Assembly (NCBI GenBank): GCA_963717685.1
Contig: OY970346.1
Coordinates: 258,970-322,969, forward strand
Reading direction: 5' to 3'
DNA: 64,000 nt
From: an uncultured Bacteroidales bacterium
Lineage (GTDB): Bacteria; Bacteroidota; Bacteroidia; Bacteroidales; VadinHA17
Positions 56,543-62,268 of this stretch are shown piece by piece. A model generated the notes under the pieces. That model had not been told where the DNA came from, did no database searches, and saw only the letters and a program-made list of their open reading frames with translations. How positions within the stretch are numbered: position 1 is the first letter of the stretch; every line of letters starts with the position of its first letter. The translations under genes were made by a program, and so were the position numbers.

Positions 56543-56550
56543 TATTTTTG
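56543..56550 (+). promoter_or_regulatory. Bacteroidota-type -7 box (TATTTTTG) upstream of the tRNA-Gly-like leader
   Basis: Matches TAnnTTTG and ends 11 nt before the pseudo-tRNA 5' end (56562). No comparable box lies directly before the real tRNA-Gly. Confidence 0.4.
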
Positions 56551-56561
56551 TCCGTGAATCT

Positions 56562-56640
56562 GCGGGAATAGCTCATCCCGATAGTTATCGGGAGGTAGAG
56601 CATAATCCGCCGGCTGGCGGATCAGGATCGCAGGTCGAGA
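56562..56640 (+). pseudogene. Truncated tRNA-Gly-like copy carrying two inserted GC hairpins
   Basis: GCGGGAATAGCTCA|TCCCGATAGTTATCGGGA|GGTAGAGCATAA|TCCGCCGGCTGGCGGA|TCAGGATCGCAGGTCGAG compared with the real GCGGGAATAGCTCAGTTGGTAGAGCATAACCTTGCCAAGGTTAGGGTCGCGGGTTCGAG. The 3' T-stem and acceptor strand are missing. Confidence 0.75.
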
Positions 56641-56652
56641 AAATGAAATAAG

Positions 56653-56725
56653 GCGGGAATAGCTCAGTTGGTAGAGCATAACCTTGCCAAGGTTAGGGTC
56701 GCGGGTTCGAGTCCCGTTTCCCGCT
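56653..56725 (+). tRNA. tRNA-Gly (GCC)
   Basis: GCGGGAATAGCTCAGTTGGTAGAGCATAACCTTGCCAAGGTTAGGGTCGCGGGTTCGAGTCCCGTTTCCCGCT. The acceptor is GCGGGAA/TTCCCGC, the anticodon loop TTGCCAA, and the T-arm GCGGG/CCCGT. Confidence 0.9.
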
Positions 56726-56735
56726 CTGACAAAAA

Positions 56736-56918: not shown

Positions 56919-59732
56919 ATGAAAAACTTTATTTTGATAATTATGACTTTTCTGACAGCTGTTTTCTTTTCATTCAAGCCAGGGAGGATGGAAGACAAGG
57001 CTATTTCAATACCTGTTGAAAAATACAGTCTGCCAAACGGGCTTACTGTTGTTCTGAATGAGGATAATTCAAATCCCATTGTTTCTGTCGCTATATATTA
57101 CCATGTGGGTTCAAGCAGGGAAACTGAAGGCAAGACCGGATTTGCACATCTTTTCGAACACATGATGTTTGAAGAGTCTGAAAATCTCCCTCGCGGCCAG
57201 TTTGTGAAGAATATCAGCAATGCCGGAGGCACTTTTAACGGAAGCACTACCCAGGACAGGACGAACTATTTTGAAGTCCTTCCAAAAAATTTCCTTGAAA
57301 TGGCGCTCTGGATGGAATCCGACAGAATGGGCTATCTCGAGAATACTGTAACAAGGGTCTCCCTTACCAACCAGCAAAATGTGGTTCAGAATGAGAAACG
57401 ACAGAGCTATGATAACACTCCGTACGGTTTCACCCAGACCGTAATTGACAAAAACCTTTACCCGAAGGGCCATCCTTACTCCTGGGACGTCATTGGTGAC
57501 ATGAAGGACCTGACAAATGCAACGGTCGAAGACGTAAAAGCCTTTCACAGAAAGTATTACTCACCCGGCAATGCATTCCTCGTAATTGCAGGGGATATTG
57601 ATAAAAAAGAAGTAAAAACCTTGGTGGAAAAGTACTTCGGTGAAATAAAGAGCGGAGAGGCAATTGAAAAGAGGAAACCCATGCTTGTCACACTGGCATC
57701 GTCAGTAAAGCTGTACCACCAGGATAATTTTGCAAAAGCGCCACAGTTGACAATGACTTTCCCGACGGCTGAGAGATATTCCAAAGATTCTTATGCCCTT
57801 AATTACCTCGCCGATCTTCTTGCAAACTCAAAAAAATCGCCTCTTTATACCATACTTGTTAAGGAAAAGAAGCTGACGTCAAGAATAATGGCAAGAAACG
57901 CATCCCAGGAACTTGCAGGTTCGTTTACCATCACAGTAACGGCAAATCCCGGTGTCAGTCTCACTGAAGTTGAAAAAGCGATTTTCGAAGGATTCAGGAA
58001 ATTTGAAAAGGATGGCTTTTCCGAGGAGGATCTGATAAGAATCCGGGCAGGATCTGAAACAAGGTTCTATAACACTTTTGCCAGCGTGCTGGGAAAAACG
58101 TTTTCTCTGGCGGATTATACAATGAATACAGGAGATCCTGAATTTTATAAAAAAGATCTTGATAATACGCTGTCTGTTACAACAGCTGATATTAAGACAG
58201 TTTACAACAAGTATATCAAGGACAGGAATTATGTGGAGACAAGTTTTGTTCCAAAGGGAGATACCGGCCTGATTGCCAAAGGATCAGTGAACGCAGGAAT
58301 TGTCGAGGAAAATGTCAAAAAAGCCGCTGAAGTCAAGGCTGAATCAGCTTTACCTCAGGCGATAACAAAAACCAGGACCATTCTAGACCGGTCAGTAATG
58401 CCTAGTCCCGGGCCCGATCCGGATCTTAATGTTCCGGTTCCGTGGGCAAGCTCCCTTTCCGATGGTATGATAATATGGGGCATCGACAAAGGGGAAATGC
58501 CTTTGATTCAGTACTCTATCCTGATTGAAGGCGGCCATCTGCTTGATAATATTGCAAAACCCGGCGTTGCAAATATGCTGGCTGCAATGATGAATGAAGG
58601 TACAAAAAACAAGACTTCAGAACAACTTGAGGACGCCATTGGACTTCTCGGGGCTACAATTAGGGTTTCGGCCGGCAATGAGAATATATCAATTGATGTA
58701 AGCTCCCTTTCACGCGACTTTGAAAAGACATTGGCACTCGTTGAGGAGATTCTGCTTGAGCCACGATGGGATACGGCTCAGTTTGATCTTGTAAAGCTCA
58801 GAATCCTCAATAATCTGAAAAGGAATTCAGCCAATCCCGATTACCTTGCATCGACCACGCTTAACAAACTGATGTTCGGTGACAATATATTTGCAACCGA
58901 TATTTCAGGAACTGAAGCATCCGTAGCCTCAATAACAATTGAGGATCTTAAAAATTTCTATTCCGGGAATTTCTCACCTTCAGTCGCAAAGTTTATTATC
59001 GCAGGTGACATTGACAAAAAACGGGTCGAAGCGGCACTTGCTTTCCTGAACAGGAAGTGGAAAGGCAAAAATGTCGTAATGCCTGAAATTAAGATACCTG
59101 AAGCGCCTTCAAAATCCCAGATCTATTTCGTGGATGTCCCTGACGCCAAACAGTCAGCCATTGCAATCGGAGTGCCATCAATTACCAGGACCGATCCTGA
59201 ATTTTTCCCTGCTGTTGCTGCAAATTACAAGCTCGGGGCCAGGGAGGCATCGATTTCAGGAATCTGGATGCAGATTATAAGAGAACAAAAGGGATTTACA
59301 TATGGAGCTTATTCCTCTTTCACGGGATTTAAAAATTTTGGTTATTTCCTGGTATCGTCGAGGGTGAGAACTAATTCAACTCTTGAATCAATGATGATAT
59401 TCAGGAGCGAGATGGAGAAGTACAGAAAGAATATGCCGCAGGAATATATTGATTTCACAAAGTCAGGGATGATGCGGAGCAACGCACGTCGTTTTGAAAC
59501 ACTCGGGAACCTGCTCGATTATCTTAATGTACTGAGTTTTTACAATTTGCCGACCGATTATGTAAAGCAGGAGGAGGCTTATCTTAAGCTGCTTACGGCT
59601 GAAAGACAACTTGAAATAGTAAATAAATATATTGACCCATCAAGGATGTACTATGTCGTGGCCGGTGATGCGGCCACACAGCTGAAGGACCTTGAAAAGG
59701 TAGGATTCGGTAAACCGATACTGGTAAAGTAA
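56919..59732 (+). CDS. Large two-unit M16-family zinc peptidase (pitrilysin-like), secreted
   Basis: Start moved to ATG 56919 (MKNFILIIMTFLTAVFFSF). HxxEH motif HLFEHMMFEES. It is about 937 aa with a duplicated M16 fold. Confidence 0.85.
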   Translation: MKNFILIIMTFLTAVFFSFKPGRMEDKAISIPVEKYSLPNGLTVVLNEDNSNPIVSVAIYYHVGSSRETEGKTGFAHLFEHMMFEESENLPRGQFVKNISNAGGTFNGSTTQDRTNYFEVLPKNFLEMALWMESDRMGYLENTVTRVSLTNQQNVVQNEKRQSYDNTPYGFTQTVIDKNLYPKGHPYSWDVIGDMKDLTNATVEDVKAFHRKYYSPGNAFLVIAGDIDKKEVKTLVEKYFGEIKSGEAIEKRKPMLVTLASSVKLYHQDNFAKAPQLTMTFPTAERYSKDSYALNYLADLLANSKKSPLYTILVKEKKLTSRIMARNASQELAGSFTITVTANPGVSLTEVEKAIFEGFRKFEKDGFSEEDLIRIRAGSETRFYNTFASVLGKTFSLADYTMNTGDPEFYKKDLDNTLSVTTADIKTVYNKYIKDRNYVETSFVPKGDTGLIAKGSVNAGIVEENVKKAAEVKAESALPQAITKTRTILDRSVMPSPGPDPDLNVPVPWASSLSDGMIIWGIDKGEMPLIQYSILIEGGHLLDNIAKPGVANMLAAMMNEGTKNKTSEQLEDAIGLLGATIRVSAGNENISIDVSSLSRDFEKTLALVEEILLEPRWDTAQFDLVKLRILNNLKRNSANPDYLASTTLNKLMFGDNIFATDISGTEASVASITIEDLKNFYSGNFSPSVAKFIIAGDIDKKRVEAALAFLNRKWKGKNVVMPEIKIPEAPSKSQIYFVDVPDAKQSAIAIGVPSITRTDPEFFPAVAANYKLGAREASISGIWMQIIREQKGFTYGAYSSFTGFKNFGYFLVSSRVRTNSTLESMMIFRSEMEKYRKNMPQEYIDFTKSGMMRSNARRFETLGNLLDYLNVLSFYNLPTDYVKQEEAYLKLLTAERQLEIVNKYIDPSRMYYVVAGDAATQLKDLEKVGFGKPILVK

Positions 59733-59779
59733 TTTATTATAAATTTGCACTGCCATTTGAGTCTTTTGTAATAATAGGC

Positions 59780-60374
59780 CTGCACGACAGCATGTTGAGG
59801 AGTTCCGCTTGAGAGGAACGTATCGGGAACTGCATGACTGCACGACTGCACGATTGCATGATTGCACGACATAAAGATGCCCGGATGGTGGAATTCCCGC
59901 TGCGCGGGACAGGGTCCAACACGCAGGAGTAGAGTTTTTTGAAATAAGGAGAAGGAATATCCATCCGCTGACTGCACGACTGCACGACTGCTTGACATAA
60001 AGATGCCCGGATGGTGGAATTCCCACTGCGCGGGACAGGGTCCGACACCCAGGACTTGAGTTTTTTGAAATAAAGAGAAGGAATATCCATCCGCTGACTG
60101 CATGATTGCACGACATAAAGATGCCCGGATGGTGGAATTCCCGCTGCGCGGGACAGGGTCCAACACGCAGGAGTAGAGTTTTTTGAAATAAGGAGAAGGA
60201 ATATCCATCCGCTGACTGCACGACTGCACGATTGCTTGACATAAAGATGCCCGGATGGTGGAATTCCCGCTGCGCGGGACAGGGTCCAACACGCAGGAGT
60301 AGAGTTTTTTGAAATAAGGAGAAGGAATATCCATCCGCTGACTGCACGACTGCACGACTGCTTGACATAAAGAT
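59780..60374 (+). repeat. Tandem array of tRNA-Leu-5'-derived units (partial leading unit + 4 units of 126/118/126/126 bp) abutting tRNA-Leu
   Basis: Units start at 59879, 60005, 60123 and 60249; the genuine tRNA starts in phase at 60375. Each unit is GCCCGGATGGTGGAAT + TCCCGCTGCGCGGGA hairpin + CAGGGTCCAACACGCAGGAGTAGAGTTTTTTGAAATAAGGAGAAGGAATATCCATCCGC + 8-nt microrepeats (ACTGCACG) + TTGACATAAAGAT. Units 1 and 4 are identical by eye and unit 3 has 1 mismatch. Confidence 0.9.
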
Positions 60375-60458
60375 GCCCGGATGGTGGAATGGTAGACACG
60401 CAGGACTTAAAATCCTGTGGCCATAACGGCTGTGCGGGTTCAAGTCCCGCTCCGGGTA
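60375..60458 (+). tRNA. tRNA-Leu (UAA), class II with long variable arm
   Basis: GCCCGGATGGTGGAATGGTAGACACGCAGGACTTAAAATCCTGTGGCCATAACGGCTGTGCGGGTTCAAGTCCCGCTCCGGGTA. The anticodon stem is CAGGA/TCCTG, the loop CTTAAAA, and the T-arm GCGGG/CCCGC. Confidence 0.9.
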
Positions 60459-60469
60459 CCCAGAGGCAC

Positions 60470-60500
60470 AAGAGGTCAAAATCGACCTCTTGTTTCTTTT
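60470..60500 (+). terminator. Intrinsic terminator after tRNA-Leu
   Basis: AAGAGGTC-aaaatc-GACCTCTT followed by GTTTCTTTTT. Confidence 0.7.
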
Positions 60501-60571
60501 TATGACATCCTGAAACCTTCACTAATTCTAAGGATGAGATGTACAGTGATTTTCAAGGAGAGGGTTGCAAC
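60474..60571 (-). pseudogene. Remnant of the 3' end of a second, related recombinase gene
   Basis: On the minus strand it reads VATLSLKITVHLILRISEGFRMS*. This parallels the C-terminal ...PIQLILRISKVLRRSE... of the adjacent recombinase (copy at 60621-60714), with roughly 75-80% nucleotide identity by eye over about 85 nt. Confidence 0.45.
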
Positions 60572-60573
60572 TT

Positions 60574-62117
60574 TTAAAATTGAAAAATTGGATTTTTTGT
60601 CAGAGTTGCAACCAGGGATTGGTTCAAATCGACTTCTTTCTTATTTTCTGACCTTCTCAAAACCTTACTAATTCGAAGGATGAGCTGTATGGGTTCTGTG
60701 AAAACGGGATACACTATTTCCCCTTTCTCCAAAATCAGTTTTTCGGCAAAGATGTTATTAAGTATTTTCTTCTTGGTAACACCATCTGACTTCCTGTAAT
60801 ATTCCAGGAGGTTCTCCAGCATTGGCACTTCCTTCTGAATGTAATTCTTGAAAGGTGATATTTGTTGTTGATGGTCATTGAGTTTTTCCTTTAAAAGAAC
60901 AAGTTCCTTCTCTACCCTACCCTTCATATCATGATAGTCATTTGAGGTAATCACACGATCCATCAAATCATTCTGAAGGTTTGATTTACGAAGTTCAAGT
61001 TTCTCTATCTCATTCTTTGTTTTTTGAATCTCATCCCTTCTCTGAAAGTCATCCTTTTCAAAAAGTTTCTCCAAAGTTTTCCTATACAGGTTGACGATCT
61101 GAGCAGAACATGAAATCTCCGACAAAATATCCTCAATACTTTCATGAACATCCTGAATCCTATGCCTTTGTTTACATTTGTCTTTGCACAGAGATAATAA
61201 TGATGGAGTTTCCCTGTGTGACTCCGACAGGCATAAGCTGTTAAAGATCTGTCGTGTTCAGGGCACTTTAAAAACCCTTTAAGAGGATATAAGTCTGATT
61301 TATCATCATGGAACTTCATATTTCTTCTGCGACCTGACAAGAAATCGTTAGCTCTATGAAATATAGTTTCGGTTACTAAAGGGGGGTGAAGTCCATTTAC
61401 GTCCTGAGATGGTTCTTTTTTCCATGGACCTGTCCTTATCTTTCCAATATAGACAGGATTTCTTATGCACCTCAAAAATGTATTCTTACTGATTTTTAAT
61501 TTATTATCATTCAACCATTTTCTGACTTCATCGGCAGAGTATGTACCTGATGCTAACATATTGAAAGCTTCAATCATCAATGGAGCCTCAGTAGGATTAG
61601 GACGAAGTGTTGACTTTTTATTGTCCCTGAAATTTTCGTATCCCTTCGGGGCCTGTGCCGTCCAGAAACCATTCATCCTGGCTCTCCATGAACCTTCAGC
61701 AGTCTTCTCTGAAATCCGGTCATTCTCCACTTCTGGCACTGTCAGGTACAAACTAAGAAGGATTTTATTTTCAGATTTTGTAATATCAAGAGGTTGTTCA
61801 ACCGTATTGACAGTTACACCAAGTTTATTAAGCTCTTTAATAACTGTCATTGCATCATACTGGTTCCTTGAAAATCTGTCCCAACGATTACAAAGGATTA
61901 AATCAACCTTACCCCTATTCCTTTTAATAAAGGACATTATTTTGATCCATTCTGGTCGATTAAATGATTTACCGGAATAGTCCTCCGTATAAATGTCAAC
62001 AATATTGTGATTGTTAATCTCACAGTATTTCGTCAGCATCACTTCCTGATGTTGAAGGCTATGTCCCTGGTCAGCCTGTTCGTCGGTACTTACCCTCTTG
62101 TATAATATTACATTCAT
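60574..62117 (-). pseudogene. Large serine recombinase (resolvase domain + recombinase domain + zinc ribbon + coiled coil), interrupted by a -1 nt frameshift near 61178-61186
   Basis: Track ORFs 61005..62156 and 60574..61125 overlap in different frames. The N-terminus is MNVILYKRVSTDEQ (catalytic Ser). The zinc ribbon CPEHD...YYLCAK continues only in the other frame as KCKQRHRIQDVHESIEDILSEISCSAQIV..., followed by a coiled coil (KNEIEKLELRKSNLQNDL). Combined length is about 510 aa. Confidence 0.75.
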
Positions 62118-62268
62118 AGTTGGTAAACTTGCTTTGATTCTGCTTGTAGCAGTCAAATTCTATCTGGGCTAAAGTCGTAATGAATTCCCGAATGATCAGC
62201 ATTTCTTCATGGGTAAATTTGAACACACCTTCATTTAATATTCTTATACATTCTTGTTCGTTTATCAT
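62071..62268 (-). CDS. Small hypothetical protein upstream of, and overlapping, the recombinase start
   Basis: 65 aa ORF (MINEQECIRILNEGVFKFTHEEMLIIREFITTLAQIEF...). It overlaps the recombinase ATG by about 47 nt. No motif recognised. Confidence 0.3.
   Translation of the reverse strand: MINEQECIRILNEGVFKFTHEEMLIIREFITTLAQIEFDCYKQNQSKFTNYECNIIQEGKYRRTG

Follow-up and report, generated by a model that had tools for sequence, protein, structure and literature searches.

A conserved mimic of the tRNA-Leu 5' half upstream of tRNA-Leu(UAA) in uncultured Bacteroidales, amplified four-fold in one genome

The stretch of DNA analysed here (64,000 nucleotides of contig OY970346.1 from an uncultured Bacteroidales bacterium, hereafter the window) contains, between an M16 peptidase gene and the gene for tRNA-Leu(UAA), four head-to-tail units of 126, 118, 126 and 126 bp (as assembled) that are in phase with the tRNA. 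Comparison with related loci gives good support to the view that the four units are a local amplification of a module of about 52 nucleotides (nt) which, across a broad clade of uncultured Bacteroidales, is located immediately upstream of tRNA-Leu(UAA). The feature is an RNA motif new to Rfam, namely a conserved mimic of the tRNA-Leu 5' half in what is most likely the leader of the tRNA precursor, amplified four-fold in the window. The best explanation overall, which we put forward tentatively, is that the amplified mimic would act in cis as a competitor tuning the folding of pre-tRNA-Leu and its maturation by RNase P.

Analysis of the window with Tandem Repeats Finder reveals a period of 126 over positions 59844–60390 (4.4 copies, 91% matches). 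The 16-mer GCCCGGATGGTGGAAT, which equals nt 1–16 of tRNA-Leu, starts at 59879, 60005, 60123, 60249 and 60375, and the genuine tRNA, as delimited by ARAGORN and Rfam, begins exactly at the expected start of a fifth unit. The units also contain the hairpin TCCC(G/A)CTGCGCGGGA, the segment (G/A)ACAC(G/C)CAGGA, the arm GGAATATCCATCCGC and a tract of 8-mers, all of them at the places given in a preliminary description made from the letters of this DNA. The array coordinates, unit lengths and phase of that description are correct to the base, and its statements that the array copies the 5' side of the tRNA, that units 1 and 4 are identical with unit 3 one base apart, that unit 2 carries about eight substitutions and lacks one 8-mer, and that a partial unit precedes the array all agree with our results (Table 1). 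Probes specific for the non-tRNA part of the units have no match outside the four units in the 64-kb window, where none is expected by chance. Running Rfam and ARAGORN on the units gave no score as a tRNA or as a known family: neither ARAGORN nor RF00005, even at E ≤ 10, recognises anything but 60375–60458, the whole window yields only three tRNAs at the Rfam gathering thresholds, and over the array region at E ≤ 10 the units give only weak mascRNA/snoRNA noise, the mascRNA alignment reaching 15.8 bits against a threshold of 42.5.

It is most improbable that a single unit was inflated to four copies during assembly. Tandem repeats are indeed error-prone in this respect and many metagenome-assembled genomes (MAGs) built from short reads hold one copy, but unit 2 is distinct from the other units and independent assemblies, long contigs included, also show arrays, with 2 to 8 units. 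Moreover, in an independent short-read assembly of the same organism (Logan, ERR11594402) the leader is identical and the contig ends at the array edge, 6 nt into unit 1, which is the behaviour expected at a true repeat boundary. The array was also correctly described as neither a CRISPR array nor coding. Indeed, the units are contiguous, the whole 126-nt period is repeated and there are no variable spacers, and the three long overlapping open reading frames (ORFs) on the minus strand (window 59640–60522, 234–279 amino acids) are artefacts of the stop-free repeat. One of these pseudo-ORFs sits in public protein collections as a predicted protein (P0001). Coding on the plus strand was considered and rejected, since the 21-codon ATG...TGA frame present in each window unit is not conserved, most relatives having CC and not AT before G1; no plus-strand ORF is present in the downstream region that holds tRNA-Leu and its terminator.

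Gene callers emit pseudo-proteins from the stop-free repeat, and the three translated minus-strand frames were compared with a protein collection in a first search. This bait recovered two metagenomic contigs on which an M16 peptidase gene is followed by an array and then by tRNA-Leu(UAA), with 4 × 80-nt and 6 × 88-nt units. A pattern derived from the shared non-tRNA insert was run in a second search against species-representative genomes and gave 37 matches, 15 of them chance matches in other phyla and 22 in MAGs assigned to Bacteroidales or 'Rikenellaceae'; in all 22 MAGs the match is found at a single locus, directly 5' of tRNA-Leu(UAA) and in phase with it. In order to avoid circularity, a third search in metagenomes was anchored only on the tRNA-like parts, with a free gap of 10–40 nt. 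It gave 45 matches, 39 of them true, and every one of the 39 carries the same insert, so that each part of the core is conserved in a sample selected without that part. Altogether 63 related loci of uncultured Bacteroidales (64 with the window, some redundant; designated L001 and so on) hold 1 to 8 core copies at the same place. One copy is present in most loci, two or three in several, four in the window and in L001, six in L002 and eight in L004, counts which have to be read with the possible collapse of arrays in short-read assemblies in mind. The question raised earlier, whether arrays exist in relatives and at other tRNA genes, is answered by these loci, all of them at tRNA-Leu(UAA), and by separate mimics at tRNA-Gly and tRNA-Phe described below. 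[quoted passage not shown] No exact match of either unit pattern was found in viral contigs, no BLAST match in phages, and in a plasmid collection the sole match was one to the microrepeats. Literature searches returned no description of such an arrangement of tRNA half-copies upstream of a tRNA.

The conserved core of about 52 nt consists of GCCCGGAUGGUGGAAU (tRNA nt 1–16), a UCCCGC-loop-GCGGGA hairpin, ACAGGGUCC and GACAC(G/A)CAGGAC (tRNA nt 21–32). The module is a rearranged tRNA 5' half, in which the D-loop is replaced by the 6-bp hairpin and ACAGGGUCC. All window units fit the family core (tRNA nt 1–16, UCCCGN-loop-NCGGGA, ACAGGGUCC, GACACRCAGGAC); AACAC and GGAG are variants of units 1, 3 and 4, and unit 2 retains GGACTT and has an A·C mismatch in the hairpin stem. 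The core is followed by an AU-rich, often U-rich spacer that differs between genomes and is not alignable. Most 'short' units, of about 80 nt, have AAUUCC at their end, the complement of GGAAUU at nt 12–17, and 'long' units (119–163 nt, window included) carry an arm complementary to unit nt 5–13, followed by 8- or 9-mer microrepeats. In L028 the 5' part of the unit has become GAUGAUG and its arm reads CAUCAUC, a matched change that lends comparative support to the long hairpin, formed by the arm and the unit's own 5' end, of the preliminary description.

Across 35 distinct units 51 columns are invariant, and almost every one of them belongs either to the core or to nt 1–16 of the copy that follows. 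The small hairpin is paired in 98% of cells despite 35 different loop sequences, and its stem shows the compensatory variants TCCCGA/TCGGGA and TTCCGC/GCGGAA as well as extended stems and one G·U pair; the GC hairpin noted from the window is a real feature with comparative support. At the equivalent of tRNA nt 26 a G/A polymorphism is frequent in the mimic and never occurs in the tRNA, indicating that the otherwise invariant 12-nt tRNA-like segment is not simply overwritten by the tRNA. The core is near-invariant while the M16 orthologues beside the related loci are only 50–72% identical in protein sequence to that of the window and the spacers cannot be aligned. From these alignments we conclude that the module is itself subject to purifying selection and that the small hairpin acts as a nucleic-acid structure, a conclusion limited by covariation in one helix only and by single-unit folds no better than those of shuffled sequence. 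Pairings resembling a D-stem or a pseudo-acceptor stem inside the core were also considered and rejected, as they show no covariation and rare variants break them. Mimics of the tRNA 3' half were sought downstream of tRNA-Leu and none was found.

The array is most simply, and most likely, the 5' leader of pre-tRNA-Leu, because a single promoter motif lies upstream of the whole array and none inside it; a structured leader was among the roles proposed earlier and is the one that fits best. Of 51 loci, 48 have the Bacteroidetes-type -7 motif TAnnTTTG no more than 250 nt upstream of their first unit, in a context (TTATAAATTTGCA) conserved among relatives, and matches inside arrays amount to two in 8.3 kb, i.e. 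chance level. Where the leader is shortest, about 14 nt separate the end of the motif from G1 of the first unit, which suggests that the ancestral state was probably promoter, short leader and tRNA. The strong terminator behind the tRNA of the window is found again after the tRNA in L001, L004, L013, L030 and others. Within the window array a terminator-like site, a weak one, is present in unit 2 only and absent from units 1, 3 and 4. A scan for sigma-70 promoters gave none on the plus strand of the units, and the T-run that follows the core is replaced in many relatives (GGTTAGGG, GTTGATAG, GGATAAGA).

These data bear on the idea that the units are independent small-RNA (sRNA) genes, each with its own promoter and terminator. 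Many units do have a T-run after the core, and the spacer in the window contains TTGACA, a sigma-70-like -35 hexamer. On the other hand, the units lack the Bacteroidetes promoter motif and the sigma-70 scan is empty, the T-run is not conserved and its terminator-like form is restricted to unit 2, and efficient terminators at these places would starve the tRNA of transcription; we regard independent genes as very unlikely. An attenuator based on intrinsic termination was rejected for the terminator-like site being confined to unit 2 and the U-run being replaced in many relatives.

In the cis mechanism that we prefer, the array would be transcribed from the single upstream promoter as the 5' leader of pre-tRNA-Leu and subsequently removed by RNase P. 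The mimic keeps the strands that pair with the tRNA 3' half, that is the acceptor 5' strand and the anticodon-stem 5' strand, as well as those pairing with the 'anti-5'' arms of the leader, and it has no 3' strand; it could therefore be a cis competitor or decoy, contending with the genuine 5' half for those partners. Such competition would tune or delay the folding and the RNase P maturation of the single tRNA-Leu(UAA), every further unit would be one more competitor, and the cleaved leader would be released as a tRNA-half-like RNA. We folded the predicted primary transcripts of 48 loci with RNAfold. With the full native leader, the median probability that the 3' acceptor strand pairs with a mimic is 0.82 and that it pairs with the genuine 5' strand is 0.004. 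Pairing with the genuine strand has a median of 0.93 for the tRNA with only 8 nt of leader, 0.21 after mutation of mimic nt 1–7, and 0.22 with shuffled leaders; it exceeds 0.5 in 2 of 35 native leaders versus 40% of shuffled ones. In these models the native leader thus shows the behaviour of a strong built-in competitor of the genuine 5' strand. In short units, AAUUCC of the leader together with GCC is predicted to trap also nt 9–17 of the next copy or of the tRNA.

Several observations weigh against this interpretation. The shuffled leaders already disturb the genuine stem, the effect being partly generic, mutation of mimic nt 1–7 restores that stem only in part, and the predicted competition vanishes in L035. 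RNAfold ignores tertiary structure, co-transcriptional folding and proteins, and thermodynamic models are crude for tRNAs. Single-unit folds are no more stable than shuffled sequence (z = -0.3 to -1.1), covariation is restricted to one short hairpin, and the few mimic changes at putative D-stem or acceptor positions (L028, L035, L039, L049.1, L014.2) are uncompensated. A copy number that ranges from 1 to 8 suggests that dosage is not tightly constrained. Finally, the case for co-transcription of the units with the tRNA is built on motif positions, and the locus set consists of carriers of the module, the share of the clade without it lying outside our counts.

The leaders of bacterial tRNA precursors are generally regarded as short and without special features. 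The leader described here belongs to a single tRNA, presumably an essential one, and copies the 5' half of that tRNA, near-unchanged across a deep clade and expandable to eight copies. If this leader competes with the genuine 5' strand, it would represent cis-encoded control of tRNA folding and RNase P processing by a 5'-half leader copy, of which we know no description; if it acts in trans, it would be a new tRNA-derived small RNA. Either way it constitutes a clean, testable RNA motif absent from Rfam, and the module explains the spurious ORF calls and the assembly breaks at the tRNA-Leu locus.

According to the trans-acting alternative, the released leader or unit-length pieces of it would be a stable tRNA-half-like sRNA titrating a protein, a nuclease or toxin, or an RNA that recognises the tRNA-Leu 5' half or the hairpin with ACAGGGUCCG, the copy number setting the dose. 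Copy number is variable, and the non-tRNA insert is invariant even in its single-stranded parts, suggesting sequence-specific recognition; however, no partner has been identified, the units have no promoter or terminator of their own and one copy suffices in most genomes, so that we consider a trans-acting product unlikely. Precedents for regulators derived from spacers of tRNA transcripts are the 3' external transcribed spacer (3'ETS) of leuZ, which comes from a tRNA operon and acts as an sRNA sponge, and the rtT RNA of Escherichia coli (RF00391). The latter comes from the 178-bp tyrT repeats, which are tandem, adjoin the tRNA, begin with a tRNA 3' fragment, lie downstream, are co-transcribed and are released by processing.

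By analogy, the tyrT/rtT repeats and the spacer-derived regulators appear to be the closest counterparts of the Leu mimic, which differs from them in side, design and conservation and whose function we infer only. Tandem repeats beside a tRNA gene, each starting with a fragment of that tRNA, are common to tyrT and the Leu units, whereas in tyrT the fragment is a 3' one, the repeats are downstream, there is no D-loop hairpin and the sequences are unrelated to the Leu units. Assignment of the units to the tyrT-type repeats was rejected on the grounds that their fragment is the 5' part, that they lie upstream and that Rfam gives no match to RF00391 at E ≤ 10. The leuZ 3'ETS resembles the Leu units in being a transcribed spacer of a tRNA precursor with a role of its own once RNases have processed it (a role that for the Leu units is proposed only), but it is a 3' spacer pairing with sRNAs and not a 5' leader copying the tRNA's own 5' half. 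Near-identical head-to-tail RNA repeats ahead of a downstream gene are also known from type III toxin-antitoxin systems (ToxI), in which repeats of about 34–40 nt are followed by a toxin ORF; in contrast, the Leu-type units are 80–163 nt long, and what comes after them is a tRNA with a terminator. A ToxI-like antitoxin array was rejected for this reason, there being no toxin ORF. The mascRNA, the bacterial YrlA RNA and the tRNA-like domain of tmRNA share tRNA mimicry with the Leu module, a likeness to which the weak mascRNA alignment can be traced. They imitate an entire acceptor/T-arm, however, and serve by themselves as substrates of RNase P, whereas the Leu module has no 3' half at all.

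Concerning its origin, the module would have arisen by partial tandem duplication of the tRNA-Leu gene, insertion of a small palindromic hairpin into the D-loop of the spare copy, and fixation as a domesticated partial duplicate, with expansion and contraction in some lineages through unequal crossing-over or slippage, accompanied by concerted evolution. These last processes would account for units that are 97–100% identical within a genome and spacers that are unrelated between genomes. The near-identity of the copies had been taken to imply recent amplification, gene conversion or selection. The comparison points to selection on the core and shows the signature of concerted evolution, and a very recent origin of the module is not required. 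The near-identical array had also been regarded as the essential feature; this view has to be corrected. The essential feature is the deeply conserved module, of which most relatives have a single copy, and the array is an amplification specific to a lineage.

Analogues exist at two other tRNAs. A check of the other tRNAs in all the retrieved DNA showed that in the window the gene for tRNA-Gly(GCC) (56653–56726) is preceded by an upstream mimic (56562–56652) with a promoter motif at about 56543–56550. The order is promoter, tRNA-Gly nt 1–14, a hairpin TCCCGATAGTTATCGGGA in the D-loop, tRNA nt 18–32, a GC hairpin where the anticodon loop would be, a degenerate 5' strand of the T-arm, a spacer and the real tRNA. 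The only other locus with a Gly mimic is L025, which lacks the D-loop hairpin, and 24 other tRNA-Gly loci are devoid of a mimic; this sporadic occurrence suggests that the copies are young and that the hairpin was inserted after the duplication. L043 (480–860, minus strand) contains a second, complete tRNA-Phe gene that has a promoter of its own and whose D, anticodon and T loops hold 18-nt palindromes (TYCCGATRGCTATCGGRA). Fragments of tRNA-Phe, from its 5' and 3' parts and likewise with palindromes, flank small GIY-YIG nuclease genes (Pfam PF01541) in L005 (5780–6530) and L043.

Such analogues favour a view of the Leu module as a functionless by-product of recurrent breakage, repair or slippage at tRNA genes, perhaps through GIY-YIG nucleases, in which partial duplicates passively gain palindromes and amplify. 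The analogues are young and sporadic, those at tRNA-Phe lie beside GIY-YIG genes, the 5' end of tRNA-Leu is copied, in direct and in inverted orientation, at other places in the leaders (module X, see below), copy number is labile, and in phage T6 the GIY-YIG enzyme SegB drives segmental tandem amplification of tRNA-Tyr (PMC13096335). The T6 case is similar in that the junction is at the 5' end of a tRNA gene, but it concerns whole functional tRNA genes, amplified recently and selected for dosage, whereas the Leu units are anciently conserved half-copies. A neutral remnant would not keep a 52-nt core near-invariant, with compensatory stems, amid protein identities of 50–72% and scrambled spacers, and the Leu locus of the window has no GIY-YIG gene beside it. 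We judge a functionless origin of this kind improbable; with the trans-acting product it is the chief rival of the cis competitor, which we retain as the preferred explanation.

The palindrome TCCCGATAGCTATCGGGA is dispersed: it was found at 52 distinct sites in viral contigs (L086–L133), versus roughly 3 expected from a rough estimate of the collection size, and its sequence was not found in any paper in our literature searches. Some of these contigs hold several copies, often flanked by short tandem repeats, and in some cases the palindrome forms the tip of a terminator-like hairpin or lies within another copy of itself. It is nested directly in an outer helix at 8 of the 52 sites (15%, versus 1.9% in a control), a tendency; outer-helix nesting as a rule was rejected. 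Two variants of the Leu hairpin, TCCCGATAAATCGGGA and TCCCGACTAGCGTCGGGA (L044 group, L055), resemble this 18-nt palindrome, and judging from this likeness the small Leu D-loop hairpin may derive from it. Derivation of the hairpin from the T-stem of the tRNA, whose strands 61–65 and 49–53 equal the Leu stem, was discarded: in the L044 group the hairpin stem has changed and the T-stem has stayed the same, and at tRNA-Phe and tRNA-Gly the hairpins mismatch the T-stems of those tRNAs. Phage contig L090 (4826–4912; also L111) contains a sequence resembling tRNA-Met(CAU) in which this 18-nt palindrome takes the place of the D-loop; its acceptor stem is mismatched, so that the sequence may represent the core of an attP site and not a gene.

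The tRNA-Gly mimic in the same window hints at a wider class. With low confidence, we propose an undescribed class of 'loop-capped tRNA mimics' in environmental Bacteroidales and perhaps their phages, in which the D-, anticodon- and T-loops of spare tRNA copies would be plugged by hairpins of the UCCCGAUAGCUAUCGGGA family, seeded by duplication of tRNA genes, in some cases beside GIY-YIG nucleases, and domesticated as regulators or decoys. Possible roles would be the gating of tRNA maturation or the shielding of tRNAs and tRNA genes from tRNA-targeting nucleases. Within this class no member would be older or more strongly amplified than the tRNA-Leu array, and the tRNA-Gly mimic of the window and the tRNA-Phe of L043 with its three hairpins would be younger. 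Taken with the tRNA-Gly and tRNA-Phe analogues and the dispersed palindrome, the module points to an unrecognised mode of tRNA gene remodelling.

Table 1. Features of the tRNA-Leu(UAA) locus in the window
Feature	Position	Strand	Remarks
Promoter motif, Bacteroidetes-type -7, TAAATTTG (TAnnTTTG)	59740–59747	+	Only one upstream of array and tRNA
Leader module Y	59797–59828	+	GTTGAGG, small hairpin (GTTCC...GGAAC), then CGGGAAC
Partial unit	59829–59878	+	8-mer microrepeats (ACTGCACG/ATTGCATG) and CATAAAGAT; equals 3' part of a unit
Unit 1	59879–60004	+	126 nt; core 59879–59929; D-loop hairpin 59895–59909; arm 59954–59968, complementary to own 5' end
Unit 2	60005–60122	+	118 nt; divergent, 8 substitutions and 8-nt deletion (one 8-mer); hairpin at 60021; arm at 60080
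Unit 3	60123–60248	+	126 nt; 1 substitution versus units 1 and 4; hairpin at 60139; arm at 60198
Unit 4	60249–60374	+	126 nt; identical to unit 1; adjoins tRNA; hairpin at 60265; arm at 60324
tRNA-Leu(UAA), genuine, class II	60375–60458	+	ARAGORN; Rfam RF00005, 61.1 bits
Intrinsic terminator of tRNA transcription unit, strong	60468–60493	+	10-bp stem, then T-run

Other elements share the leaders with the units. Segments like module Y occur in L007, L041, L078 and L030. A further module of about 95 nt, termed X, is found in L019 (7346–7445 and 7613–7705) and, upstream of the first unit, in L030, L056, L065 and L047. Its first part is tRNA-Leu nt 1–11, its interior contains AGCGAAGCAGCCAG as well as a terminator-like hairpin, and its last part repeats tRNA nt 3–17 in inverted orientation; its folding is more stable in L019 (z = -4.5) than in L030 (z = -1.7) and L056 (z = -2.1). 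An identity of module X with signal recognition particle RNA, suggested by GAAGCAGCCA, was rejected, Rfam giving no match at E ≤ 10. The leaders of tRNA-Leu in most relatives are filled with 8- and 9-mer microrepeats having a YGCA core (ACTGCACG, ACCTGCAAG, TAACTGCA). In the window these are located at 59829–59870 and inside each unit, and they are also present in L056 (about 25 copies), L018, L009, L061 and others; (GAC)YGCA(N) microrepeats related to the window tract hold the same place in the leaders of most relatives. Intergenic direct repeats of the heptamer TAACTGA are known from Beggiatoaceae, Cyanobacteria and some Bacteroidetes (PMC4679880). The leader microrepeats are likewise short tandem repeats in leaders whose transcription is deduced, but they have another period and sequence and accompany a tRNA mimic ahead of a tRNA, not of a start codon. 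Among the relatives, many of the terminators downstream of tRNA-Leu are made up of (GAGAGY)n repeats.

About 120 bp past the tRNA of the window, to its 3' side, lies a serine recombinase (Resolvase and Recombinase domains) encoded on the minus strand (60574–62156) by two overlapping ORFs of 383 and 183 amino acids, an arrangement suggestive of a frameshift or of an integrated element in decay immediately 3' of the tRNA. The proximity of this large serine recombinase gene favours the reading of the array as a recombination target, that is an array of attachment sites for this recombinase, as had been proposed, or for another integrase. We consider this extremely unlikely, as the recombinase lies on the 3' side of the tRNA and is apparently frameshifted, module and arrays are present in dozens of related loci without that gene, no mobile DNA is found between the copies, and the compensatory stem changes point to nucleic-acid pairing. 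A duplication of an attachment site by an integrase was rejected as well, the 5' half being the duplicated part, with nothing between the copies and the module occurring in loci without a recombinase. The 3' flank of the tRNA (terminator and following sequence) is itself duplicated with 80% identity (60498–60543 versus 60644–60689) around a 51-nt palindrome (60563–60613, GGTTGCAAC...GTTGCAACC), and the duplicated flank together with the palindrome may be the attachment region of an integrated element. The palindrome is also found after the tRNA in L001, which is without the recombinase, and its region has only a weak resemblance to CRISPR-DR50 (E = 3.2). In L034 the 5' half of tRNA-Leu(UAA) is followed by a different variable arm and T-arm and the acceptor 3' strand is mismatched; this tRNA may be chimeric or degenerate, perhaps at the junction with an integrated element.

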